A stretch of 32,070 bases of DNA from a virus (lineage: Duplodnaviria; Heunggongvirae; Uroviricota; Caudoviricetes). A program made the translations under genes and the position numbers. Below the pieces are notes generated by a model that made no database searches, was not told the DNA's origin, and saw only the letters and a program-made list of their open reading frames with translations. Location: the IMG/VR virus record IMGVR_UViG_3300034045_000104. One strand, written 5' to 3'. Of this stretch, positions 3,599 through 14,864 are shown piece by piece; position 1 is the first letter of the stretch, and each line of letters begins with the position of its first letter.

Positions 3599-4318
3599 TT
3601 ATACAAATGCTTCACAAGATTCACTGCAACCATTTATAGCATCCATGTCATATCCAAGTAGGTCATATTGCAATTCTGGCATATGATCCTTAAACTCTGT
3701 AAACTCACATTTAGACATTTCAATCAACTTATCAACTGTTAAATATTCTCTGAACCAATATCTTCTTTGCCCATCCTTTACACCAACCAGACTGTATTGC
3801 TCCTTGAACCAATAACGAATTTCGGCCTTAGTAGTTGGAACCATTGAGATAAGCGGGTATATTAACTTTTCCTTTTTTGAGTTTGGATTGATTCTATCAA
3901 TTTCGTCCACTCGAATTCCAACACAAGCCAATGCATCTGGGTCAATCGAACGTCTATATTTGTTCAAGGGAATGGATTTTAAACGCCCTGAACATCTTGG
4001 AATACCTGGTCCTGACAATCCTTCCTTTTTAATATGTTGCTCAAAAGGCTCCCCATCTCTAGAAGCACTTGCATAGTTTACAATTTTATAAGTTTGACCT
4101 ATACCCTTTTGCTGATGCGTAACAGACTCAATCCAAACAAGATTTAAACCCCAATGCTTGTCACACTTATTCACAAATTCAAGCGTTTTCTCATGCTCTA
4201 AACCGGTGTTAGCAAATACAAAATACAAATCATATTAGCCGCTTTTATTATCCAGCAACCATTTACACATAAATGCACTGGTCCTACCTCCTGAAAATGA
4301 CACTACGAGCTTTTGCAT
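3599..4318 (-). pseudogene. PAPS-reductase-like (PP-loop) protein with premature stop
   Basis: ATG at 4318 gives MQKLVVSFSGGRTSAFMCKWLLDNKSG*YDLYFVFANTG. In-frame TAA at 4235-4237 separates the SFSGG PP-loop from the rest (GIRVDE motif). Confidence 0.8.
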
Positions 4319-4325
4319 AAAACAC

Positions 4326-4664
4326 CTATTCAACAATCACTAAATTAAGTTCATCGATACCAATAATATGTTTTATTTCCGCTGTAGGGAAAAGGCACTT
4401 AGCCCTATCCAGAGAAGAAAATACACTACCTACCTGCATATGTGCATCACGCCATTGATTATCAGACAACATTGGTTGAAAATAGATCTGTCTATCCTCT
4501 ATACCCAACCCAGCTTCATCACAACTATTGCAATACTCCAAACCAGCGTTACAATCTCCTTCATCATTAAGCACCCAACGCTGGGTTTCAACATACCAAG
4601 ATACAGGACTCATATCGGTAACATCACTTGAGCCGCACTTTTTACAAACTTTCACTATTGCCAT
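4326..4664 (-). CDS. Hypothetical protein with zinc-ribbon (CKKC...CNSC)
   Basis: Two CxxC pairs; GAGG Shine-Dalgarno upstream. Confidence 0.65.
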   Translation of the reverse strand: MAIVKVCKKCGSSDVTDMSPVSWYVETQRWVLNDEGDCNAGLEYCNSCDEAGLGIEDRQIYFQPMLSDNQWRDAHMQVGSVFSSLDRAKCLFPTAEIKHIIGIDELNLVIVE

Positions 4665-4714: not shown

Positions 4715-4743
4715 CAAAGCCAGCTGAATTCAACTGGCTTTTA
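4715..4743. terminator. Intrinsic terminator-like hairpin
   Basis: AAAGCCAG-ctgaattcaa-CTGGCTTTTT just downstream of parB. Confidence 0.55.
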
Positions 4744-4760
4744 TCTAACATAGATATAGA

Positions 4761-6455
4761 CTAACTTTTATTTATATCTAGCTTTACCTCGCCATACTGA
4801 CTAATCGGAAACTGGATATATGGGGGAATGAAATCAGCTTTTAAGTTACTGACAAGGATTTCCTTGCGCTTTGGAAGTGTAGCTTTGGCAAACCCACCCA
4901 TTTCATCATCTGTCAACAACTCTTGAGCTACTGCCCATGTTGCATCCTTTGATGATAGACCTTGAATCACTTCTTCATCAGCTTTCCAGTAATCAGCAGG
5001 ATTAATTCCCATATCAACGCCAAGTCGCTCAATTAAATCCGTATTCTTATGAAGCGTAGCTAACATAATTGTTGAACACATCTCGGTCAATTCATCCATC
5101 GTCTTATCTTTAAGCTCATCAAAAACCTTAACAAGAGAATTGCCAAACACGCGCCACGTACTACCAAGACCAAATCCCTCCTTAAAATCACCAATTCTTT
5201 TATATAAATCCATGGTAATATCGTGGTTGGCAAGCTGAGCGTTTCCCTCTTCATTGATATCACCAACCTCCATAAATGAAAACACAGACTTAGTAATTAA
5301 ATGAGCCACCATAACCCGCATAGACATGAGCTTATCACCTGATAATTTAGCTCTGACCATTTGATAATGCCAATCAGAATAATACACTTGAGAACCCGAT
5401 GACAATTCTTGTCTTTGCTTTGTAGCAGGCATTTCAACATCTTGCTCGCTACTGGCTGTCTCAACATCAGGCTTTTCAGAAGCATCTCGCATATCATAGC
5501 CTTCATTAATATCCACTTGACCATCAGCAGCAACTGTAATAACAACACTGCCGCCTTCGGCCTTATCTAATGAATCACAACTCCATTTGTTAAATGATAA
5601 AGTGCTGTCCTTGTCGATAACCACAACCTTCCACCCGTCTTTTTCAAAAGCTTTTTTCTTAGCCATTACAGCTTTCAATTGTAACTTCCAAAACAAATCA
5701 ACATCAGTAATATAGCCTTCATCGGTAAACAAATCCTTACTCATGAGCATTTTATGTTTCTTCACATCAAAAAGGGCATAACCAGGGTCAATTTCCACAT
5801 TACAAAAAAAGGTCTTTGCATACCATTCATGTTTTGATAAGCCATCGTTTAATGCCTGAACATAGGCATCTTGCTTGTCATGCTCATAACGAACCATTAA
5901 CTTTAGAATATCATCATCAGTAAACACATCATTACGATATGCCTCTTTTGCAAGTTCAGACAACCCACCTAAAGCGATATTTTCCTTAACCTGTTTAACA
6001 GTTAACCCAAAACGCTTGGCAATGCTCGTAAATGTAGCACCCTTTGCCTTAAGATGGGTAAATGCTGTACATCTATCCAAGGCATCCATCTGCTGAGTAT
6101 AAATGTTTTCAGATAAAGACTTTGCAACATCATCTTTAATATCGGACTGAAGAACCACGCAAGGAACTTCGGGGTAAATCCCATCTTGTTCTTGTAATAT
6201 CTCACAAGCCTTTAAACGTCTTTGGCCTGCTATAACATGATAATTGCCATCATCTGCAAGTCGCACACTTAAAGGATTAATTAAACCTACCTCGCCAATA
6301 TTAATAGCAAGCTCTTTAATGCCATCAAGACCATGCTTTCTAACATTGTCATCACTTACTGTTAACTTATCAATAGCTACCAACTGCGTAGCCAATACAT
6401 TTACTGATTCAGATTCATCAGTTAAAACACTTACTTTACCCATAAAACACTCCAA
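4761..6455 (-). CDS. parB: ParB/RepB/Spo0J-family protein (long MGE type)
   Basis: N-terminal ParB domain (GLINPLSV...IAGQRRLKAC, SENI) followed by HTH. Probable start MGKVS at 6443 with GGAG SD. Confidence 0.85.
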   Translation of the reverse strand: MECFMGKVSVLTDESESVNVLATQLVAIDKLTVSDDNVRKHGLDGIKELAINIGEVGLINPLSVRLADDGNYHVIAGQRRLKACEILQEQDGIYPEVPCVVLQSDIKDDVAKSLSENIYTQQMDALDRCTAFTHLKAKGATFTSIAKRFGLTVKQVKENIALGGLSELAKEAYRNDVFTDDDILKLMVRYEHDKQDAYVQALNDGLSKHEWYAKTFFCNVEIDPGYALFDVKKHKMLMSKDLFTDEGYITDVDLFWKLQLKAVMAKKKAFEKDGWKVVVIDKDSTLSFNKWSCDSLDKAEGGSVVITVAADGQVDINEGYDMRDASEKPDVETASSEQDVEMPATKQRQELSSGSQVYYSDWHYQMVRAKLSGDKLMSMRVMVAHLITKSVFSFMEVGDINEEGNAQLANHDITMDLYKRIGDFKEGFGLGSTWRVFGNSLVKVFDELKDKTMDELTEMCSTIMLATLHKNTDLIERLGVDMGINPADYWKADEEVIQGLSSKDATWAVAQELLTDDEMGGFAKATLPKRKEILVSNLKADFIPPYIQFPISQYGEVKLDINKS

Positions 6456-6498
6456 TAATTAAAATAAAAACAACAACACATCATAGAAACACTCAATA

Positions 6499-6674
6499 TT
6501 AAAACTATACCATCTTGCATCAGAGATTATGATACCCGCCGTGCTTTTTCAGTAGGCGAAGCCGAAAGAAAAAGCACGGCGAAAGAATCTCATTCCAACT
6601 GAGTTACTCATTAAGAGTGGGCGAAACGCCAACACCCAAAGCAACCCATAAGCCAAGAAGATATAAAGTTTTAA
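6499..6674 (-). ncRNA. Retron msr-msd-like ncRNA, copy 1 (downstream of RT)
   Basis: a1/a2 inverted repeats 6674-6654 / 6517-6499; candidate branching G at 6653; msr-like stem GGGUG..GGCG-UUU-CGCC.CACUC; msd-like hairpin GCCGTGCTTTTTC..GGC-GAA-GCC..GAAAAAGCACGGC (6538-6580). Confidence 0.7.
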
Positions 6675-6713
6675 ATCTAAGAATTAATAATAGAGCGACT
6701 AAAATATCTGCAA

Positions 6714-8021
6714 TTAAACATGGGCATATCTAACTTCAATATTTGTACCCTTACGCTTGCCTGTGCCACACTTAAGATTATCAAAATAGGGCTTATATCT
6801 TTTGACAACATTACCAACAACCCGTTGACCCGAATATTTTTGTTTAGCCTGTGCCACCGATATCACCCCATGCTTTTCTAACTCAGCTTTCAGGGCATCT
6901 GTATCATTTCCGTATAGTCGGTCATAGATGAGAACTCCATTTCGTAGTTCGTGAACTAACGCCCTGTTAATCATGGCTCTCCTAGTTACTTTTCCAAATG
7001 ATATTGTTGAATTTGACATTTGATAAGCACATCGAGTACCTGCCAAAGCAATCCAAAAGCCAACCCCTCGCTTATAAGAGCCAGTATTACTCATACAGCT
7101 AGTCCAGCCCGTTGTGAAAGTTGAAGCCCCCAGCATATCAATAGGGTCGCCAGATATAACACAATCATTACCTAGTACATCAGTTTGTTTTTTGGGAAAA
7201 TTGGCAATATCTTTCTGCCTTAAGCCCATTTTCCACAATGAGTTCAATGCATATAGATTATCTTCAACATTAATTCTTTGATTGTCCTTTCTAGGCTCCT
7301 TGCATTTTGACCATTCAGTTAGCCCTTGCAATGAATCTTTATTTCCTTGAAACTTAGCGGCTCGAATTTTACGCAAAGCTTTACGAGCAGGGTGAACGCC
7401 ATGTTCATCCACTCCAACACCTGTGATTAAAATCCTACCATTGCTTAATTTTTGTAATTTAGTCTTACTTTTATTAACTACAAAACCACCACGAGTTACC
7501 ACCTGATTTATTATTGCAATAATATCAGAGGTATAACTTTCATCATCAAAACTAATAGTTAAATCATCGGCATAGCGCGTATAGATACACTGCATTTTCT
7601 TTTTTTCAAAAGCTCTCAAAATTGCTAAATCACTTTTACGAAAAGCCAAATTAGAGATGGCTGGAGATGTAGGCAAACCTTGCCTTGCACTACCATCAAT
7701 AAAGCACAAATCAAGCTCTTGTTTGTTGAGATGACCCTTTACCGTCTTTGGGGTAATGCTATCAAAGAAGTCTTGTAAATCCATTGACAATGTGAATTGA
7801 TGCCCAACATGTTTTGTTGCATTGGTAACACAATTACGTGTTCGCATAAATGCATGACAAATCTCTGAATCTGCATCTAGTTTCATCATTTTACTAGCAA
7901 TATTAGCTACCGCATTTTTCAAAGCAACCTTATATTCACCACTAGCATCATATATTTTTCTAAACTTGCCATTGCCTTTCGCGAGCTGAAACACCCGATA
8001 TTGCTTTTCTACTACTGCCAT
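6714..8021 (-). CDS. Retron-type reverse transcriptase with about 190-aa unknown C-terminal extension
   Basis: RT motifs MDLQDFFDSI, QGLPTSP, YADD; retron region X NATKH and region Y ITG. Confidence 0.9.
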   Translation of the reverse strand: MAVVEKQYRVFQLAKGNGKFRKIYDASGEYKVALKNAVANIASKMMKLDADSEICHAFMRTRNCVTNATKHVGHQFTLSMDLQDFFDSITPKTVKGHLNKQELDLCFIDGSARQGLPTSPAISNLAFRKSDLAILRAFEKKKMQCIYTRYADDLTISFDDESYTSDIIAIINQVVTRGGFVVNKSKTKLQKLSNGRILITGVGVDEHGVHPARKALRKIRAAKFQGNKDSLQGLTEWSKCKEPRKDNQRINVEDNLYALNSLWKMGLRQKDIANFPKKQTDVLGNDCVISGDPIDMLGASTFTTGWTSCMSNTGSYKRGVGFWIALAGTRCAYQMSNSTISFGKVTRRAMINRALVHELRNGVLIYDRLYGNDTDALKAELEKHGVISVAQAKQKYSGQRVVGNVVKRYKPYFDNLKCGTGKRKGTNIEVRYAHV

Positions 8022-8072
8022 ATTAATTACCTATAAATATTTTAGTTAATACATAATACAATGGCTAAATAT

Positions 8073-8468
8073 TCACTCAGCAACACACATTAAATCAACA
8101 GCAAGTATTACATTAAATTTACATTCAAACCAGTGCCACACATCATACAGCTCACTACCTTTTGGAAAATGAAGAAAATCATCATCAATATATTCAGCAT
8201 CCACATCTACTGGAACATCACCCAAATCACTCCACAATTTAACTGCACGAATATAGCTTTCACAACGACTGATTAGACTTACATCAATAGCATCCTTCCC
8301 CATACCTTCAACATAAACAAACTTGAGCCAATTATTAACAATCCCGTCACCCAAAGGCCCCAACCCATTATTGCCTTCAACCCACACAACATGCTTAAGG
8401 TCATCGTTACTGTTTTTATTAGCATCCAACCAAGCTGCAACCACACTTAGAATATATGTTTTATCCAT
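8073..8468 (-). CDS. Hypothetical protein between retron ncRNA and RT (candidate accessory)
   Basis: ORF-track start 8519 overlaps the a2 repeat; MDKTYIL at 8468 has a GAGGT SD. C-terminal DDFLHFPKG..DVWHWFE motif. Confidence 0.7.
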   Translation of the reverse strand: MDKTYILSVVAAWLDANKNSNDDLKHVVWVEGNNGLGPLGDGIVNNWLKFVYVEGMGKDAIDVSLISRCESYIRAVKLWSDLGDVPVDVDAEYIDDDFLHFPKGSELYDVWHWFECKFNVILAVDLMCVAE

Positions 8469-8501
8469 CACAAATACCTCAAAATAGAATTTAAAATAAT
8501 A

Positions 8502-8672
8502 CAAAGCAACTCCTTGCAAGAAGAGACGAAGAGATCCTCAAGGTAAAAATTCGGAGGCGTAGCCGTAGAACCTTTTACCGTCTCGGATCTTGTCTCTGAC
8601 AATCTAGACTGTCAATAAAGAGTGGACGATACATCACACCCAAGCCAGCCTATAAGCCAAGAAGTTACTTTG
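8502..8672 (-). ncRNA. Retron msr-msd-like ncRNA, copy 2 (upstream of RT)
   Basis: 15-bp a1/a2 (CAAAGUAACUUCUUG / CAAGGAGUUGCUUUG, two G-U pairs); candidate branching G at 8657; long msd-like hairpin 8523-8596 tipped by GGC-GTA-GCC; shares AAGAGTGG..CACCCAA..ATAAGCCAAGAAG with copy 1. Confidence 0.78.
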
Positions 8673-8715
8673 ATTAAGAACAATTAATTATAAGAATGCT
8701 AAATTACGACAAGAG

Positions 8716-9255
8716 CTAGTCAAAACCAAATTCATAATGACCACCAACAGACGTGCTTTGCCAACACAACATCCAAAACATCGTATTTTGTTGTAATGCA
8801 GCTAAGATATGTTCATTCTCAGAAAATCCACCTGTTGATAATCTCCACACACTTTGATTATCAGCAAAATCCTTAAGCGGAACACTATCCCCACACCTTT
8901 TAATAAATGGCAATATCAATTCAAACAACTTACCCCAACCCAAAGTAATTGGCCAGACACGTATTGCCTCTAATGCCCAAGAAGGCACCTCAGAATCTTT
9001 TAACCCATCTGATAACAGTCTTTGCGTATACACGCAACTTACCAATTTGTCATATTCATCTTTTGTGATTTTCCAGAATCGCCCCCACCAATCAAAAGCT
9101 AATAACAACACATCACCAGAGGAGCTGTTTTCATGAACATATGCACAACCATCCAATGTCGGAATAGCAAGAATGGTTTTAATTAAATTATCAATACTTG
9201 ATTCCTCACCATAGGCCTCAACCCACCCACTACCAAATATATAATACTCTCTCAT
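8716..9255 (-). CDS. Hypothetical phage/MGE-type protein (179 aa)
   Basis: LSTGGFSENEHIL..FWMLCW..GGHYEF motif that I associate with phage hypotheticals; unverified. Confidence 0.7.
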   Translation of the reverse strand: MREYYIFGSGWVEAYGEESSIDNLIKTILAIPTLDGCAYVHENSSSGDVLLLAFDWWGRFWKITKDEYDKLVSCVYTQRLLSDGLKDSEVPSWALEAIRVWPITLGWGKLFELILPFIKRCGDSVPLKDFADNQSVWRLSTGGFSENEHILAALQQNTMFWMLCWQSTSVGGHYEFGFD

Positions 9256-9336: not shown

Positions 9337-9467
9337 ACCAACACAAGTTGGGAGTAACAATTAACCCTAAGGTAATCGTCAGGAATTAACAAAGTCTATT
9401 AGACAACTGTGTTAGAACCTCTCCAAAACTTACCTACACAAGTAGAGATTTACGTAGTCTATTAAAC
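9337..9467 (-). CRISPR. Cas12a mini-array cassette 3
   Basis: Near-consensus repeat 9467-9432, 27-nt spacer 9431-9405 (AAGTTTTGGAGAGGTTCTAACACAGTT), half repeat ending 9404, variant handle ACTCCCAAC-TTGT-GTTGGT at 9355-9337. Confidence 0.75.
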
Positions 9468-9570
9468 AGCTAACTAAGAACAAAATACCCTATATGGTGC
9501 TTTTGAGTATCACAAGATTCAAAAAAACACTATATTCATGCTATTATACTCATTAGACCAGGGTTTGCAA
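9468..9570 (-). promoter_or_regulatory. Promoter + leader, copy C
   Basis: TTGCAA(9570-9565)-16 nt-TATAAT(9548-9543); 44-nt core 9487-9530 identical to copies A and B. Confidence 0.8.
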
Positions 9571-9594
9571 TTTTCTATAAAACAAATTAACTCA

Positions 9595-9785
9595 ATCTGC
9601 ATCAGCAAATTTACATAGCCCATTAGTCCAATAATATTTGTATTTCTCATAAGTTTACATAACCTATTAGACAGAAGTTATATTTATACTTATAGATGTA
9701 TCCGCAAAAGCGGAAGTTTTATAGTGTCATTGAGACTTATGAGTTAGGTATCCGCAAAAGCGGAAGTTTACAAAGTCTATTAAAC
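9595..9785 (-). CRISPR. Cas12a mini-array cassette 2 with variant TCCGC/GCGGA handles
   Basis: Repeats 9785-9750 and 9736-9700 with handle AACTTCCGC-TTTT-GCGGAT; 13-nt spacer 9749-9737; 27-nt spacer 9699-9673; degenerate repeats 9672-9654 and 9628-9595. Confidence 0.8.
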
Positions 9786-9867
9786 AGCTAACTAAGAACA
9801 AACTACCCTATATGGTGCTTTTGAGTATCACAAGATTCAAAAAAACACCTATATTCAAGCAATTATA
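9786..9867 (-). promoter_or_regulatory. Leader copy B with -10 box
   Basis: TATAAT at 9867-9862 with no consensus -35; 44-nt core 9805-9848. Confidence 0.7.
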
Positions 9868-9868
9868 G

Positions 9869-10031
9869 TCATTCACAAATTGGAATTAACGTAGCCTATT
9901 AGACCCGCTCAGACATAAGTTTCCTCAGCCAAATCTACACAAGTAGAAATTCTCCTAGTCTATTAAACGCAAGAGCTAGCCAACCCTGACCATGAATCTA
10001 CACAAGTAGAAATTCTCCTAGTCTATTAAAC
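9869..10031 (-). CRISPR. Cas12a mini-array cassette 1 (consensus repeats)
   Basis: Two identical 36-nt repeats GTTTAATAGACTAGGAGAATTTCTACTTGTGTAGAT (10031-9996, 9968-9933), 27- and 28-nt spacers, degenerate terminal repeat about 9904-9869. Confidence 0.93.
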
Positions 10032-10136
10032 AGCTAAATAAGGACAAACAACCCTATATGGTGCTTTTGAGTATCACAAGATTCAAAAAAACACCTATAT
10101 TCATGCTATTATAGTGATTAAGACCAGGGATTGCAA
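10032..10136 (-). promoter_or_regulatory. Promoter + leader, copy A
   Basis: TTGCAA(10136-10131, inside cas12a)-17 nt-TATAAT(10113-10108); 44-nt core 10051-10094. Confidence 0.85.
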
Positions 10137-13100
10137 TTATCTAACATATTTAAGAAATGCCCAAAATACTTTTCGTTTTCTAAAAACAAATCAACCTTGT
10201 CATCAACTGCAGTCTCATTGATTTGCTGTAAAGCCCATAACCCCTTCACCCCAATTAAATAAGCGCCCAACATATCAGTAGAGCAGGGCATATTACCTGC
10301 ATCCAAGGAATTGTAATAACTGCCATCAGAGCAACGAATGGGGGATAAAACATAATCCAAACCACCTCGCCCGTTAGATTGCCTCATTTTAAAAACCAGA
10401 TTCAATAAAAAGAATAAATCTCTAAAAAACGCAGCTGAATTAACCTCTAAGATCACTGGCAATATATCTTCACCATCCTTAAATTCAATATCAGCATTAA
10501 TCAACAACGACTGCAATTCTTCATTAACATTAATACATTCAAATTCTTTTTGGGTCTTGTCATAAAAATAACGCTCATCTCCATGAGTGGATGCCACCCA
10601 TTTTGTTTTATAACCAGTAAAATCCCGTTTAGAAAACATTGGCTCATAATCAAAACCAATATCAAAAACATTGAATTCTTTATTAAAACGAACACCTTCA
10701 AACTTACCTAAGAAAGACTTCGCATTTTTCATGTTTTTATATTGAAACCTGATCAAATTAACAAAACCTGATTTCGGACAAAGCGATGTTGTATAGCTTG
10801 GATTAGCAATAAACATGGCCCCCGCCTGTTTTCCTAGCATTTTAAGCGATTCAAATTTAGGTGCCAATTGATAAGCATTTAAAACATGACCCGCCTGGCC
10901 AATAGTCTTTTCTTTTAGTACCATAAAATTAAGCTTATTTGATAATGCAATCAAGAATCGGTCATATATTTGCGCCTCAAACTTCTGCCTAGCTTGCTTG
11001 AAACCAGCATCCAATCCATCCACACATAGTACCGCATTATGCTCAATCATTAATCTTGTAACCCTATGCAAGACGGTACCAAGAAAACCTTGTTTTAATT
11101 CTTTAATCCCATCAACAGCAGCCCATGCCTTTCTTGATGCGTTTCTTTTCAACTCTCTATCTTTCAAGATAACTTGATAATCAGTAACTATTTTGTTGGG
11201 GTCAACGACCTTATCAAGTGTATCATGATCGATAATTTTTCCTGATTGGTCCATTACAACATAGTAAAGAAGATTCTTTTCACCACGTTTTAAAGCCAGT
11301 ACATTTATTTTCTTTTTATTGGCTCGAATCACTTCATTATTGAAGTTGCGGTTAAAGTAAAAAGATTCTTTTGCGCCTTGATGGTTTAATGTGATGCTAA
11401 AATTAAATTGAAAATGTTCCTTAGTGTATTTCTTATCTTTAATAATATCATAAGCATAAGTTGCTGTTTTATTTTTTGCATTGGGATTTTTATTCTTAAT
11501 TGGAATCCCTGCTTTATGCACAATCATTTGTTCCTTGCTAATTAGTGCGGGTCGCCAAAAAAGCTCACCACCTCCATTTAATTTGATAATTGGCGCTTTC
11601 AAGTTCACTTGAGAGAACAAGTTTTTAATGTACATCGTGTGTATACTATCACGCCCTTTTGAATGGGGAGAAAAATCCATATTGTAGATTTGGAATAAGA
11701 ATAACTTACCACTTTCAACAGCCGCATCGATGTAATCATTTTTGATACAAGTAAAATCAACTTTATAAGCGGCCTTTTCAACTTCTACATAAAACTCACT
11801 GACATTGGTATAAGTCGATGTCTTACTGAAATTATAATTAAACTGGTTCCAAACAGGATGAATTTTAAGACAGCCCTTAAAGTAATCAATGACCTTATGA
11901 CAGTCATCTAAATTGAATTCAGCCTTATCAAAACCATCCTTTGGCAACCCACCTTTGGTATGTGAAGAGCGATTAGTAATATCGATAATTTCATCACTAG
12001 GATTAAAGAATTCACGTCTATTCAACGCTGAAATAAAAACTTTAGGACCCATTTTATTGAAGCCAGATACCATGGAGTAATCCATTTTATTGTAGCCAAC
12101 ACCATCTGGGCATTTGATTTCATTCAAAAATGCTTTTTTCTTCGCAGCTTTTACAGGGTTAAAATGCTCATCAAATTTAAGCGTGTAATCAAAGAGCTTT
12201 TTATTATCTTGATTAACTATCCCCAGGTAATACAAACCATCTTTTTCAAACATAACAGATGAGGATGCCTGTTCTTGACCTGATGACCAACCACTGAGTA
12301 ATTGATAATTATCAAAGTTTAACTTGATCTTCTTACTAGTTGATTTTTTCTTAGTTACATGATTTCTGACTTTGTTATAAAGCAAAAACATTAATTCATC
12401 TAGATGAGAATAAACATCCAGGAACCCAGAATAAAACAAAGAATCATGATTGAGGGCTTTAGTCATATCAATAGCAGCTTTATTTTCAACCAAATGAAGC
12501 GGCCTATAAGCTACAACGAACGCGTTCATGCACTCCAATAAGGACTGAATTATTTGAACTTGCTTAAATCCCTTGCCGCCTTCGTCTTCATCATTTCTTG
12601 TTTTTGGTAGCCTTCTATTGGCATCTAGAAAATCAAGGCATTCAATTGTCTTATATAACTCACGAGCCTTGTCATAAGACTCTTTTAATTTGATATAAGA
12701 ACCAACAATGCCAGATTGCACAGGCAATTGCGTTTTCAATTCTGATAAAATAGAATAAAAACCATCATCAGAATTCAGCGTATTAGCATATTTGATAATG
12801 AGCTCATCCATCTGACCGATACTGACAACCGACACATCATTTAGATTGTTCTCACTTAGCACGACATCAATTAATTTATAGTCACCAAATATAGCGTTAG
12901 ATAAGAATTTAATTTTGTTGGTTTTGATATAAATAGCAGTCGCGTCACGCTTGCTCAGCGATAATATTGTTTGACTCAAAGAATTAAAAATACCATCCTT
13001 TGACTCTAACATCTCAACAGCGGCATTAAGTGCGGCAATCATTTCCTTATCAGTATCGAAAAACGCAGGCACAAACGACAAAGAGCCCCCTTCACCAAAT

Positions 13101-13990
13101 ATTTGACGTTGAAGTTTTACAAAAACGCCAAACCTTGAGATGTCTTTATTGACTGCTAATAATTCATATATAAAGCTATTTATACCCTTGGTACGAGAGC
13201 CATCCTCATGACTAACACCTAGGAATTTTGCATTGTAATTATTTATATTGTTCTGAGCGACATAATCAAAAGCCTTGCTTAATTCAAACAACTCATCACT
13301 CTTATGTAACACATCCAATAAGCCATCAAATCTTTTGTCTTGCTCACCCAACCCAAGAACATTATTAAAGGCCAATTTATTTTTGAAAAACAATTCTAAA
13401 TTCACATCAACGATACGATAGGCCAGGGCATTAGATTTGGACTCAGATGAAAACAAGCTTTTCTTTAGCTTAAAGTAATCCATAAAATAACTGGTAAACT
13501 TATTAAATCCATGGACTATTTGAATGTCTTTATAGTCACAATCTTGCTCATCCATCCACTCAGGCAAAACCTTCACCAAAAATGCTGATTTCAAAAGAGC
13601 GCTTAAGCCAATAAAGCATTTAGCAACATGCTTTCTTAACTTGTCTTTACTAGAATCATAGGCTTTAAAAGCCTTTTGCATGCGCTTGGTCTTTACTTCT
13701 TTTGACTCATCACCTTCATCAGATGTACCAATCACAGACCGATACAACTCATAGTGGGACTCAATCAATGCGGCATCAACCTTAAGGCCTGCAAGACAAC
13801 GCTTGATGTAATCACGATAGTAAGCATCAGCAAATCCTTTTACAGCCAAAAAATCCTTAGCTCTTTGCTTATCTTGTTCAACAAATCCCTTTTCTTTAAT
13901 GTGTTCCAGAGTTTTACCGACCGGAATTAGTTTTTGGCGAATAGTTTTTGTCACTTGGTATACACCGGTGCTTTCATCAAAGACACTCAT
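10118..13990 (-). CDS. cas12a: Type V-A Cas12a (Cpf1) homolog, predicted nuclease-dead
   Basis: 1290 aa; N-terminal KTIRQKLIPVGKT, KLNFDN..LSGW, NKMGPKVF, KLNGGGELF. RuvC-I LALKRGEKNLLY (D>K), RuvC-II LCVDGL (E>D), RuvC-III TDMLGAY. Adjacent Cas12a-type repeats. Confidence 0.95.
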   Translation of the reverse strand: MSVFDESTGVYQVTKTIRQKLIPVGKTLEHIKEKGFVEQDKQRAKDFLAVKGFADAYYRDYIKRCLAGLKVDAALIESHYELYRSVIGTSDEGDESKEVKTKRMQKAFKAYDSSKDKLRKHVAKCFIGLSALLKSAFLVKVLPEWMDEQDCDYKDIQIVHGFNKFTSYFMDYFKLKKSLFSSESKSNALAYRIVDVNLELFFKNKLAFNNVLGLGEQDKRFDGLLDVLHKSDELFELSKAFDYVAQNNINNYNAKFLGVSHEDGSRTKGINSFIYELLAVNKDISRFGVFVKLQRQIFGEGGSLSFVPAFFDTDKEMIAALNAAVEMLESKDGIFNSLSQTILSLSKRDATAIYIKTNKIKFLSNAIFGDYKLIDVVLSENNLNDVSVVSIGQMDELIIKYANTLNSDDGFYSILSELKTQLPVQSGIVGSYIKLKESYDKARELYKTIECLDFLDANRRLPKTRNDEDEGGKGFKQVQIIQSLLECMNAFVVAYRPLHLVENKAAIDMTKALNHDSLFYSGFLDVYSHLDELMFLLYNKVRNHVTKKKSTSKKIKLNFDNYQLLSGWSSGQEQASSSVMFEKDGLYYLGIVNQDNKKLFDYTLKFDEHFNPVKAAKKKAFLNEIKCPDGVGYNKMDYSMVSGFNKMGPKVFISALNRREFFNPSDEIIDITNRSSHTKGGLPKDGFDKAEFNLDDCHKVIDYFKGCLKIHPVWNQFNYNFSKTSTYTNVSEFYVEVEKAAYKVDFTCIKNDYIDAAVESGKLFLFQIYNMDFSPHSKGRDSIHTMYIKNLFSQVNLKAPIIKLNGGGELFWRPALISKEQMIVHKAGIPIKNKNPNAKNKTATYAYDIIKDKKYTKEHFQFNFSITLNHQGAKESFYFNRNFNNEVIRANKKKINVLALKRGEKNLLYYVVMDQSGKIIDHDTLDKVVDPNKIVTDYQVILKDRELKRNASRKAWAAVDGIKELKQGFLGTVLHRVTRLMIEHNAVLCVDGLDAGFKQARQKFEAQIYDRFLIALSNKLNFMVLKEKTIGQAGHVLNAYQLAPKFESLKMLGKQAGAMFIANPSYTTSLCPKSGFVNLIRFQYKNMKNAKSFLGKFEGVRFNKEFNVFDIGFDYEPMFSKRDFTGYKTKWVASTHGDERYFYDKTQKEFECINVNEELQSLLINADIEFKDGEDILPVILEVNSAAFFRDLFFLLNLVFKMRQSNGRGGLDYVLSPIRCSDGSYYNSLDAGNMPCSTDMLGAYLIGVKGLWALQQINETAVDDKVDLFLENEKYFGHFLNMLDNCNPWS

Positions 13991-14135: not shown

Positions 14136-14864
14136 TTATTGTTCGGCTAGAAATTGACTAAATTTAGCATATTCATCAGCTGTAATATTAACAAACTTAT
14201 TCCACCCTGTATACGCATCTAGCAACTCACTAGCCATGTGCTTATTAGAGGCATCAAAAACCTCACACGTTCCATTAAATAAAATATCACCAGACCTTAA
14301 TGCATTTATCAAGTCATTAATTCCGTAATTGTCATAATGATTAACATAATCAGAGCCAAGCAAAAAATATTGTTTATTATCAATTTCAAGCTGCTCATCT
14401 ACAAAGCCACTGACCGTCTCATACCAATCTTTTTCATCCCAGTTATCATTTCCATACTTCTCTTGAAAGGCCATGGTGATTTCAACACAAATTCCCATCA
14501 AACCAGCCTGACCCTCATGGCGCTTTATTTTTATAAGTTTAGGATTAACATCTGCCAAACCAACAATTTGCTCACAAACCAGCCAATTAACCTCCAAATA
14601 CCCAAGCAATCTTTTTTTGAGCGTCTTACAGCCAACCTTAAGAATATTTTGTATTGACTCAACTACCATTGCACAATTTCTATACGCATTATCAACATAG
14701 AATACTGTATTTGTACTCATACAGATAATCGCAACAGTCAAGCCTTGGCTATTTGCATTATTATCAAAATAGACATCGATATGCATAAAATTATCATCAT
14801 CTATAAAATCATTCTTAACTTCAGTTACATTCTTCTGATTACTATTAGTCATATTTACCACCAC
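14136..14864 (-). CDS. Hypothetical protein (242 aa)
   Basis: Long co-oriented ORF; no motif recognised. Confidence 0.75.
   Translation of the reverse strand: MVVNMTNSNQKNVTEVKNDFIDDDNFMHIDVYFDNNANSQGLTVAIICMSTNTVFYVDNAYRNCAMVVESIQNILKVGCKTLKKRLLGYLEVNWLVCEQIVGLADVNPKLIKIKRHEGQAGLMGICVEITMAFQEKYGNDNWDEKDWYETVSGFVDEQLEIDNKQYFLLGSDYVNHYDNYGINDLINALRSGDILFNGTCEVFDASNKHMASELLDAYTGWNKFVNITADEYAKFSQFLAEQ

Follow-up and report, generated by a model that had tools for sequence, protein, structure and literature searches.

The viral record IMGVR_UViG_3300034045_000104 of IMG/VR (Duplodnaviria; Heunggongvirae; Uroviricota; Caudoviricetes), a stretch of 32,070 nucleotides (nt) analysed here at its full length and referred to as the window, encodes a retron-clade reverse transcriptase (RT) whose gene is flanked by two structured non-coding RNA (ncRNA) elements of the msr-msd type, one upstream and one downstream. 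The usual description of a retron comprises one RT, one template RNA and one effector. From the comparisons set out below, we propose with moderate confidence that this locus is an unclassified retron of mobile elements, in which the RT and a C-terminal domain are joined in one polypeptide and which possesses two functional msr-msd template genes. The anatomy of the two elements, the covariation of their helices among relatives and the recurrence of paired elements at related loci make it very likely that each is a genuine msr-msd gene maintained by selection.

Between ~14 kb and 0.4 kb of the window every called gene is on the minus strand, and along this strand the order is ORF179 (ORF, open reading frame), element 2 (copy 2, the upstream msr-msd; 8497..8676), ORF131 (8073..8468), the RT gene (6714..8021; 435 amino acids), element 1 (copy 1, the downstream msr-msd; 6499..6674), a gene for a ParB_N-domain protein and a terminator-like hairpin. 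Copy 2 thus lies 481 nt upstream of the RT start, with ORF131 between them and a gap of 51 nt from ORF131 to the RT, and copy 1 begins 48 nt past the RT stop. Both elements were delimited by their folds and a1/a2 pairing together with matches to models of related RNAs (R2 for copy 2, R2 and R3 for copy 1; see below).

The two minus-strand RNAs, each of ~170 nt, follow a common plan in which a closing stem formed by a1 and a2 encloses a nested msr hairpin in the 5' half and a long msd hairpin in the 3' half. In copy 1 the a1 core (6654-6666) pairs with the a2 core (6505-6517) at 12 of 13 positions, and in copy 2 the pairing between a1 (8658-8672) and a2 (8502-8516) is complete (15/15). A putative branching G stands directly after a1 (G6653 in copy 1 and G8657 in copy 2) and opens the triplet G-C-U that follows a1 in both copies. 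The msr P2 hairpin was placed at ~6607-6641 in copy 1 and ~8612-8646 in copy 2, and the msd hairpin at ~6520-6600, with a 16-bp stem, and ~8519-8588, respectively. Predicted folding energies were -67.5 kcal/mol for copy 1 (z = -6.7) and -64.8 kcal/mol for copy 2 (z = -5.3), and in neither case did any of 200 shuffled sequences fold as well.

Alignment of the two copies runs from the a1 end through the msr hairpin and reveals a common core, CTTCTTGGCTTAT...TTGGGTG...CCACTCTT. Within this region the outer stem of P2, GGGUG/CACUC, is common to both copies, whereas the stem of the inner msr hairpin covaries, being GGCG/CGCC in copy 1 and GATG/CGTC in copy 2; each msr folded alone also adopts the P1-around-P2 shape of the wider family, with P1 sequences that differ. 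Overall, the two msr regions are 74% identical, whereas the identity of the msd regions (57%) is close to the mean for shuffled sequences (55%). The msd tips are alike, reading GGC-TTC-GCC at 6556-6564 in copy 1 and GGC-TAC-GCC at 8557-8565 in copy 2 on the plus strand, and beyond the tip the two stems are unrelated. No meaningful match to either msd was seen in the rest of the window, and Rfam 15 gave no match at gathering thresholds anywhere in it. An earlier note, made from the letters of this DNA alone, had described a retron RT bracketed by two such elements with paired a1/a2 repeats, a G after a1, a shared msr core and divergent msd hairpins, copy 1 preceding a ParB-like gene and copy 2 the 131-amino-acid ORF. 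Our alignments and folds recovered every one of these sequence features on the minus strand at the positions it had given, and the gene order agrees. Its view that the msr, as the part recognised by the RT, is conserved while the msd varies is borne out by the identities above, and its assignment to retrons is upheld by the RT comparisons and by the RNA family accompanying this RT clade.

The RT domain spans residues ~1-235 (Pfam RVT_1) and is followed by a conserved C-terminal domain (residues 236-435). The best 25 PADLOC matches were all retron RT models (top 5.8e-42), the best NCBIfam match was retron_St85_RT (4e-40, below its curated cutoff), and all 14 sequence matches in the PDB were retron RTs. 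In line with these results, Foldseek comparison of the predicted structure (mean predicted local distance difference test score, pLDDT, of 90) with the PDB returned as first matches the RTs of retrons Eco2, Ec86, Ec78, Ec83, Eco7 and Eco8, with the Eco2 RT as the best match for the whole model. Across 24 homologues, N67, A68 and H71 of the retron motif NAxxH of region X (NATKH at residues 67-71) and the catalytic YxDD (YADD at 150-153) are invariant, and the VTG motif of retrons, in region Y (ITG here, at 199-201), is V/I-T-G; NAxxH and VTG are retron-specific (PMC7736814). The protein starts ~40 residues later than the Ec86 RT, its residue 6 aligning with Ec86 residue 46, and the whole family is equally short. 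Because the PADLOC type models are nearly tied (III-A 141.7, XIII 141.5, II-A 135.8, I-C 131 and XI 130 bits), the RT appears, on these model scores, to fit none of the retron types I-XIII cleanly.

The C-terminal domain (window 6714-7421) contains the stretch GDPxxMLGMSTFTTGWTSCM and invariant residues C309, H357, D292 and D414, together with several invariant Trp; a Cys-His-Asp arrangement among these can be offered as a guess only. It matched no Pfam or PHROG family and, using Foldseek, no PDB entry at E <= 0.001. VIA-align gave a best Z of 5.5 over ~91 residues, to GNAT enzymes, which is below the level showing kinship, and in the ESM Atlas the domain matched only unnamed viral proteins of 444-502 amino acids (template-modelling score, TM, 0.66-0.71). 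A search of viral contigs with this domain returned one locus, on the same contig as L106, one of the related loci described next.

Homologous RTs number ~260, full-length homologues of ~430 amino acids being common in metagenomes, and we collected 30 loci that encode such RTs. The closest loci carry recognisable copies of the same RNA, and distant GC-rich loci carry RNA of the same plan. For the latter, the tip of the msr hairpin, [GA][CT]G-N[ACT]U-CG[CT]C, served as the anchor of an ungapped alignment. The msr hairpin motif was located ~135-210 nt before the RT start in L082, L083, L088, L091, L092, L095, L096, L097, L105, L110-L114 and L100. As is classical for retrons, the distance from the end of a2 to the RT start codon is 3-46 nt in most family loci. 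Pairing of the P2 hairpin reaches 95.9% across 21 elements, and five of the seven P2 pairs have changed on both sides; the covariation score of 0.733 for this hairpin compares with 0.256 for shuffled alignments, 0 of 500 of which reach it, and with 0.10-0.26 when the pairing partners are slid. Similarly, in 18 elements the eight a1/a2 positions adjoining the G show 97.9% pairing, compared with 45.6% for a1 and a2 combined across loci. The triplet after a1 is G-C-U in all 18, and a2 is mostly preceded by U-Y-G.

Models trained on the relatives in turn recognised the elements of the window. A covariance model (R2) trained on the elements of L081, L082 and L109 alone had just two significant matches in the window, 8596-8667 (E 7e-8) and 6591-6665 (E 2e-6), the next match having an E of 0.36. 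A family-wide hairpin model (R3), trained on 20 non-window elements, ranked copy 1 (E 6e-4) and the other site (E 0.022) first and second in the window and, when applied across the family loci, also found an element before the L100 RT on which it had not been trained. Other search strategies were set aside. The first covariance model (R1), built from four close elements, found none of the RNAs of the distant relatives, and simple sequence patterns failed as well; MAFFT followed by RNAalifold on 13 msr regions produced a wrong alignment and no structure; an RNA pattern search of viral contigs gave no match; and a search of genome contigs with the RT alignment was swamped by generic retron RTs, via YTRYADDL, and yielded no true family member. 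On the deepest RT branch (L101, L102 and L106-L108) we detected a1/a2-like candidates with no recognisable msr motif, and these were left uncounted; retron-like, a1/a2-closed structures that lack the family msr motif occur there right after the RT stop in L102 (2442-2600) and L108 (4103-4275). Elsewhere in the family, unusually long non-coding stretches precede the RT in L083 (4373-5000, ~630 nt) and L113 (1270-2000, ~730 nt). One RNA unit was recognised in the former and two in the latter, and further elements may exist.

The earlier note had named covariation across homologues as a test of its proposal and had called for a search for further loci with more than one ncRNA. Strong covariation is found in both the msr P2 hairpin and a1/a2, and two RNAs per RT recur among the relatives, flanking the RT or in tandem; two copies are present in 5 of the 19 family loci with recognised RNA, L109 being uncertain as its contig extends only 62 nt upstream. 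The relative L081, whose RT is 77% identical, has the same flanking layout as the window. Its alignment with the window begins at the RT start and extends to the end of the downstream msr, where all similarity is lost; the msr of this downstream copy is conserved, and its msd has been replaced yet still forms a hairpin. The L081 contig starts inside the upstream copy, the last 47 nt of which are 92% identical to element 2. L088 (RT 45% identical) carries one upstream copy and another that starts 7 nt after the RT stop, L097 and L113 each carry two tandem upstream copies, and in L109 (RT 58%) a consensus promoter, TTGACT-17-TATAAT, precedes a downstream copy. L082 (RT 61%) has a single copy, directly upstream; the 107 nt that follow its RT contain none. 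As a separate observation, TTCCGAATAATCCATATATGGAGATATT occurs as two direct copies immediately past the downstream ncRNA of L109 (1618-1673).

On a maximum-likelihood tree of the RTs, two-copy loci fall on at least four separate, well-supported branches and have single-copy sisters, L091 beside L088 and L112 beside L113. Within two-copy loci, msr identity is 74-81%, and msd identity is at the level of shuffled sequences in three of four pairs (that of L088 being 69%). This pattern, with the msr kept and the msd free to change within a locus, fits co-evolution with one RT. Repeated doubling among relatives speaks for function and not accident, and the RTs of this family thus probably produce more than one species of small single-stranded DNA.

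Such variation in copy number also bears on the alternative that one RNA alone serves as a working template, the other being a decaying or merely recent duplicate. We regard this as unlikely. Most family loci have a single copy directly before the RT, and the differences between close relatives (L088 and L091; L113 and L112) indicate that copies are readily lost, whereas both copies in the window have kept every helix through compensatory differences and are matched by independent models. Moreover, the intact but different msd hairpin of L081, attached to a conserved msr at the same downstream place, speaks for selection and not decay, and the downstream copy of L109 has its consensus promoter.

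Since the msr is shared within each locus, no second RT is present in the window and no partner genes are conserved, the most likely arrangement is that one RT reverse-transcribes both RNAs into two different multicopy single-stranded DNAs (msDNAs). This would be in agreement with published work, in which related retron RTs reverse-transcribe each other's msr-msd at ~60-75% msr identity (PMC6868368) and engineered msr-msd units placed in tandem on one transcript are used by one Eco1 RT (10.1101/2023.07.17.549397). In such a scheme, the RT would recognise features kept in both RNAs, namely the a1/a2 stem, the G-C-U after a1 and the nested msr hairpin with its GYG-UWU-CGY tip; the 2'-OH of G6653 or G8657 would serve as primer, so that the RT would prime each RNA and copy each msd hairpin. 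The products would be two msDNAs with a common RNA handle and differing DNA hairpins of ~70-85 nt. A single transcript could cover copy 2, ORF131, the RT, copy 1 and the ParB-like gene, since these are co-directional and a terminator scan from copy 2 to the end of the ParB-like gene reported no terminator-like site except the msr hairpin of copy 2 itself. The copies may also, or instead, have promoters of their own; a consensus scan placed a promoter-like site, TTGACT-16-TAGCAT (8696..8723, minus strand), just 5' of copy 2.

By analogy with single-protein retrons, each msDNA-RT complex might restrain or direct the fused C-terminal domain. As this domain is the sole constant protein part among the family loci, such control is the most economical idea, and two hairpins could then provide a wider range of triggers, of targets or of things sensed or bound. 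The suggestion of the earlier note that the two msDNAs partner different effectors gained no support from these comparisons, as ORF131 and the ParB-like gene are not conserved beside family RTs; its other example, decoys for different DNA-binding proteins, is likewise not backed by any conserved partner gene. Family members lie in mobile elements and phage-like regions, with DUF932, DUF2201, methylases, SNF2, RusA, a Gp3-like directionality factor and one IMG/VR contig among their contexts, and a role in conflicts between mobile elements and their hosts, in either direction, is for this reason possible.

Several points weigh against a retron with two working templates. RNA was recognised at 19 family loci only, and because most contigs are short metagenome pieces the copy numbers are lower bounds. 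The R3 scores for the window copies are modest (19.4 and 14.6 bits). The likeness of the msr regions within a locus could reflect recent duplication or gene conversion in place of shared use by one RT. Neither window copy occupies the place usual in the family, where a2 ends 3-46 nt before the RT start, so that their expression and processing are assumed, and the sole promoter candidate for copy 1, which the scan did not report, is weak, with a spacer of 15 nt.

It is also conceivable that one or both elements act mainly in cis, as structured leaders controlling the following gene (ORF131 or the ParB-like gene), in the manner of the type VI retron RNA; in that system, the reverse-transcribed DNA is reported to derepress translation of a retron protein (10.1101/2025.10.22.683967). 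Each copy is indeed followed, ~30-60 nt past a2, by a Shine-Dalgarno-like sequence and a same-strand ORF, and the msr hairpin of copy 2 matches a terminator-like pattern in the scan. However, the RT is the constant at these loci and the following genes are not: ORF131 is an orphan, L081 has unrelated DNA in its place, the downstream copy of L109 has no co-directional called gene within ~200 nt and that of L088 precedes a peptidase-like ORF. We thus consider control in cis improbable as the main role of these RNAs.

Duplication of an msr-msd-RT unit in tandem followed by loss of one RT would likewise produce the layout of the window, with copy 1 as the leftover template of a second retron, or as the template of an RT encoded elsewhere on the element. 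Nevertheless, the 32-kb window contains no second RT or RT remnant, the msr of copy 1 is closest to that of copy 2, with which it shares the P2 outer stem, and L081 and L088 have the same layout, again with no second RT, making this origin a shade less plausible still than control in cis. Finally, we give very little credence to the idea that the elements are structured signals of a mobile element (single-strand promoters of a conjugative leading region, terminators or recombination sites) and not RT templates, because, in contexts that are unrelated to one another, the RNA family accompanies the RT clade on its strand with constant spacing, and because it carries the hallmarks of retrons (a1/a2, G after a1, msr hairpin and msd hairpin), even if small acidic ORFs in one direction, along with a methylase, DUF1064 and ParB-like genes, give the window the look of mobile-element DNA, and the elements bracket variable cargo.

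Comparison with known systems places the proposed two-template retron close to, and yet apart from, several of them. The standard retron has one msr-msd upstream of the RT (PMC6868368, PMC7736814), and at this locus the standard organisation, with one msr-msd immediately upstream of ret, is absent. The RNA architecture is classical, as in the standard cassette of Retron-Eco1/Ec86. The order of copy 2, ORF131 and RT corresponds to the msr-msd, ORF, ret order of Retron-Sen2/St85 cassettes, in which an ORF lies between msd and RT (PMC6868368). Unlike either of these cassettes, however, the locus has a second complete msr-msd, with a different msd, after the RT gene; and unlike Retron-Sen2/St85, its middle ORF is an orphan that is unconserved even in the 77%-identical relative. 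Like the single-protein retrons (types I-C, such as Retron-Eco2/Ec67, VII-A1, XI and XII; PMC7736814), it combines an RT bearing a fused C-terminal domain with the absence of a conserved accessory gene, and it shares with them the NAxxH, VTG-like and YADD motifs and a same-strand msr-msd with a1/a2 and a G after a1. It differs from them in having two template RNAs, neither of which abuts the RT start, and in its C-terminal domain, which is not Toprim, DUF3800, a protease or TIR and is none of the fused domains in Table 1 of PMC7736814.

In our literature search, no retron with two native template RNAs or two msDNAs came to light. The nearest natural precedent is the UG27 group with its variable ncRNA arrays, where the hairpin at the centre of each unit gives rise to a short cDNA hairpin (10.64898/2026.09.22.753630). 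Both systems have one RT with several structurally alike, sequence-diverse ncRNA units, and in both close loci gain or lose units. The UG27 RT, however, is a class 2 'Unknown Group' enzyme with YSDD that needs two accessory proteins, bORF and sORF, whereas the RT studied here is of the retron clade, has YADD and lacks conserved accessory genes; and UG27 units form long arrays and carry an AUCN7UANAG motif and a pseudoknot, whereas one or two units are seen here. The AUCN7UANAG motif has two matches in the window, neither within the elements, compared with 4.9 expected by chance. Membership of UG27 was accordingly rejected, the retron models scoring best, the catalytic motif being YADD, no neighbour being conserved and the motif being absent from the elements. 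Engineered retron arrays ('multitrons'; 10.1101/2023.07.17.549397) likewise combine several msr-msd units whose msr is common and whose msd differs; these are laboratory constructs derived from Retron-Eco1, whereas the present arrangement is natural and known from sequence alone.

A natural family whose single RT retained two diverged templates would show that the msd can be exchanged as a module and that the msDNA of a retron need not be of one species only, which bears on how retrons sense phages or other invaders. A broader proposal, which we advance tentatively and to which we would give slightly less than an even chance as a whole, is that the family, carried by plasmid-like elements and phage-like regions, multiplexes: one RT-effector fusion would be served by a small, fast-changing set of msr-msd units that have been gained, lost and moved repeatedly, in flanking or tandem positions, as a natural counterpart of the engineered arrays, and the repertoire of msDNA hairpins would set what the system senses or binds. 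The locus also points to an unclassified RT-fusion family on mobile elements. For genome engineering, a natural RT accepting two msd hairpins with a common handle would show which RNA parts to keep and which are free to change.

Genes around the retron vary from locus to locus. No conserved neighbour was found across the family loci, and in particular ORF131, ORF179, the ParB-like protein, ORF112, the PAPS-reductase-like protein and ORF102 were matched in none of the others. ORF131 is a small acidic protein, known here from its translation (isoelectric point, pI, 4.3), with no homologue besides itself among 5.8 billion proteins, no ESM Atlas lead and only a weak PHROG match, to phrog_24588 (unknown function); the slot that it occupies is variable, as L081 has 294 nt of DNA there without similarity (L081 49-342). 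It is one of three small acidic proteins without Pfam families around the retron, the others being encoded at 8716-9255 and 4326-4664 (pI 4.7 and 4.5, respectively). The first of these two, ORF179, is a called gene (8716..9255, minus strand) and has a weak internal match at window 14160-14375. In the plasmid database, blastn searches down to ~65-70% identity left window 6400-8800 unmatched.

The ParB_N-domain protein (4761..6455, minus strand; Pfam ParB_N, with ParB-like matches in NCBIfam and PHROG) has 564 amino acids when read from TTG, and an alternative ATG at 6443 is preceded by GGAG. It is encoded by the first gene past copy 1, is found beside the RT in no other family locus and is a neighbour, not a demonstrated part of the system; the terminator scan placed the terminator-like hairpin that follows it at 4716-4741 on the same strand. 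Further downstream of the retron is a short PAPS-reductase-like protein of 209 amino acids, possibly truncated (3599-4228), and L081 has a 290-amino-acid PAPS_reduct gene downstream (L081 2756-3628) and no ParB-like gene on its contig. This pairing is reminiscent of the ParB-like/PAPS-reductase gene pairs of mobile elements. Elsewhere, the window encodes SNF2 helicases, TnpB, an IS3 transposase, a methylase, DUF1064 and DUF5983, and upstream of the retron there is a Cas12a gene, followed by short degenerate repeat arrays and duplicated leader-like units (direct-repeat families D1-D5; window 9337-10136 and 10118-13990).

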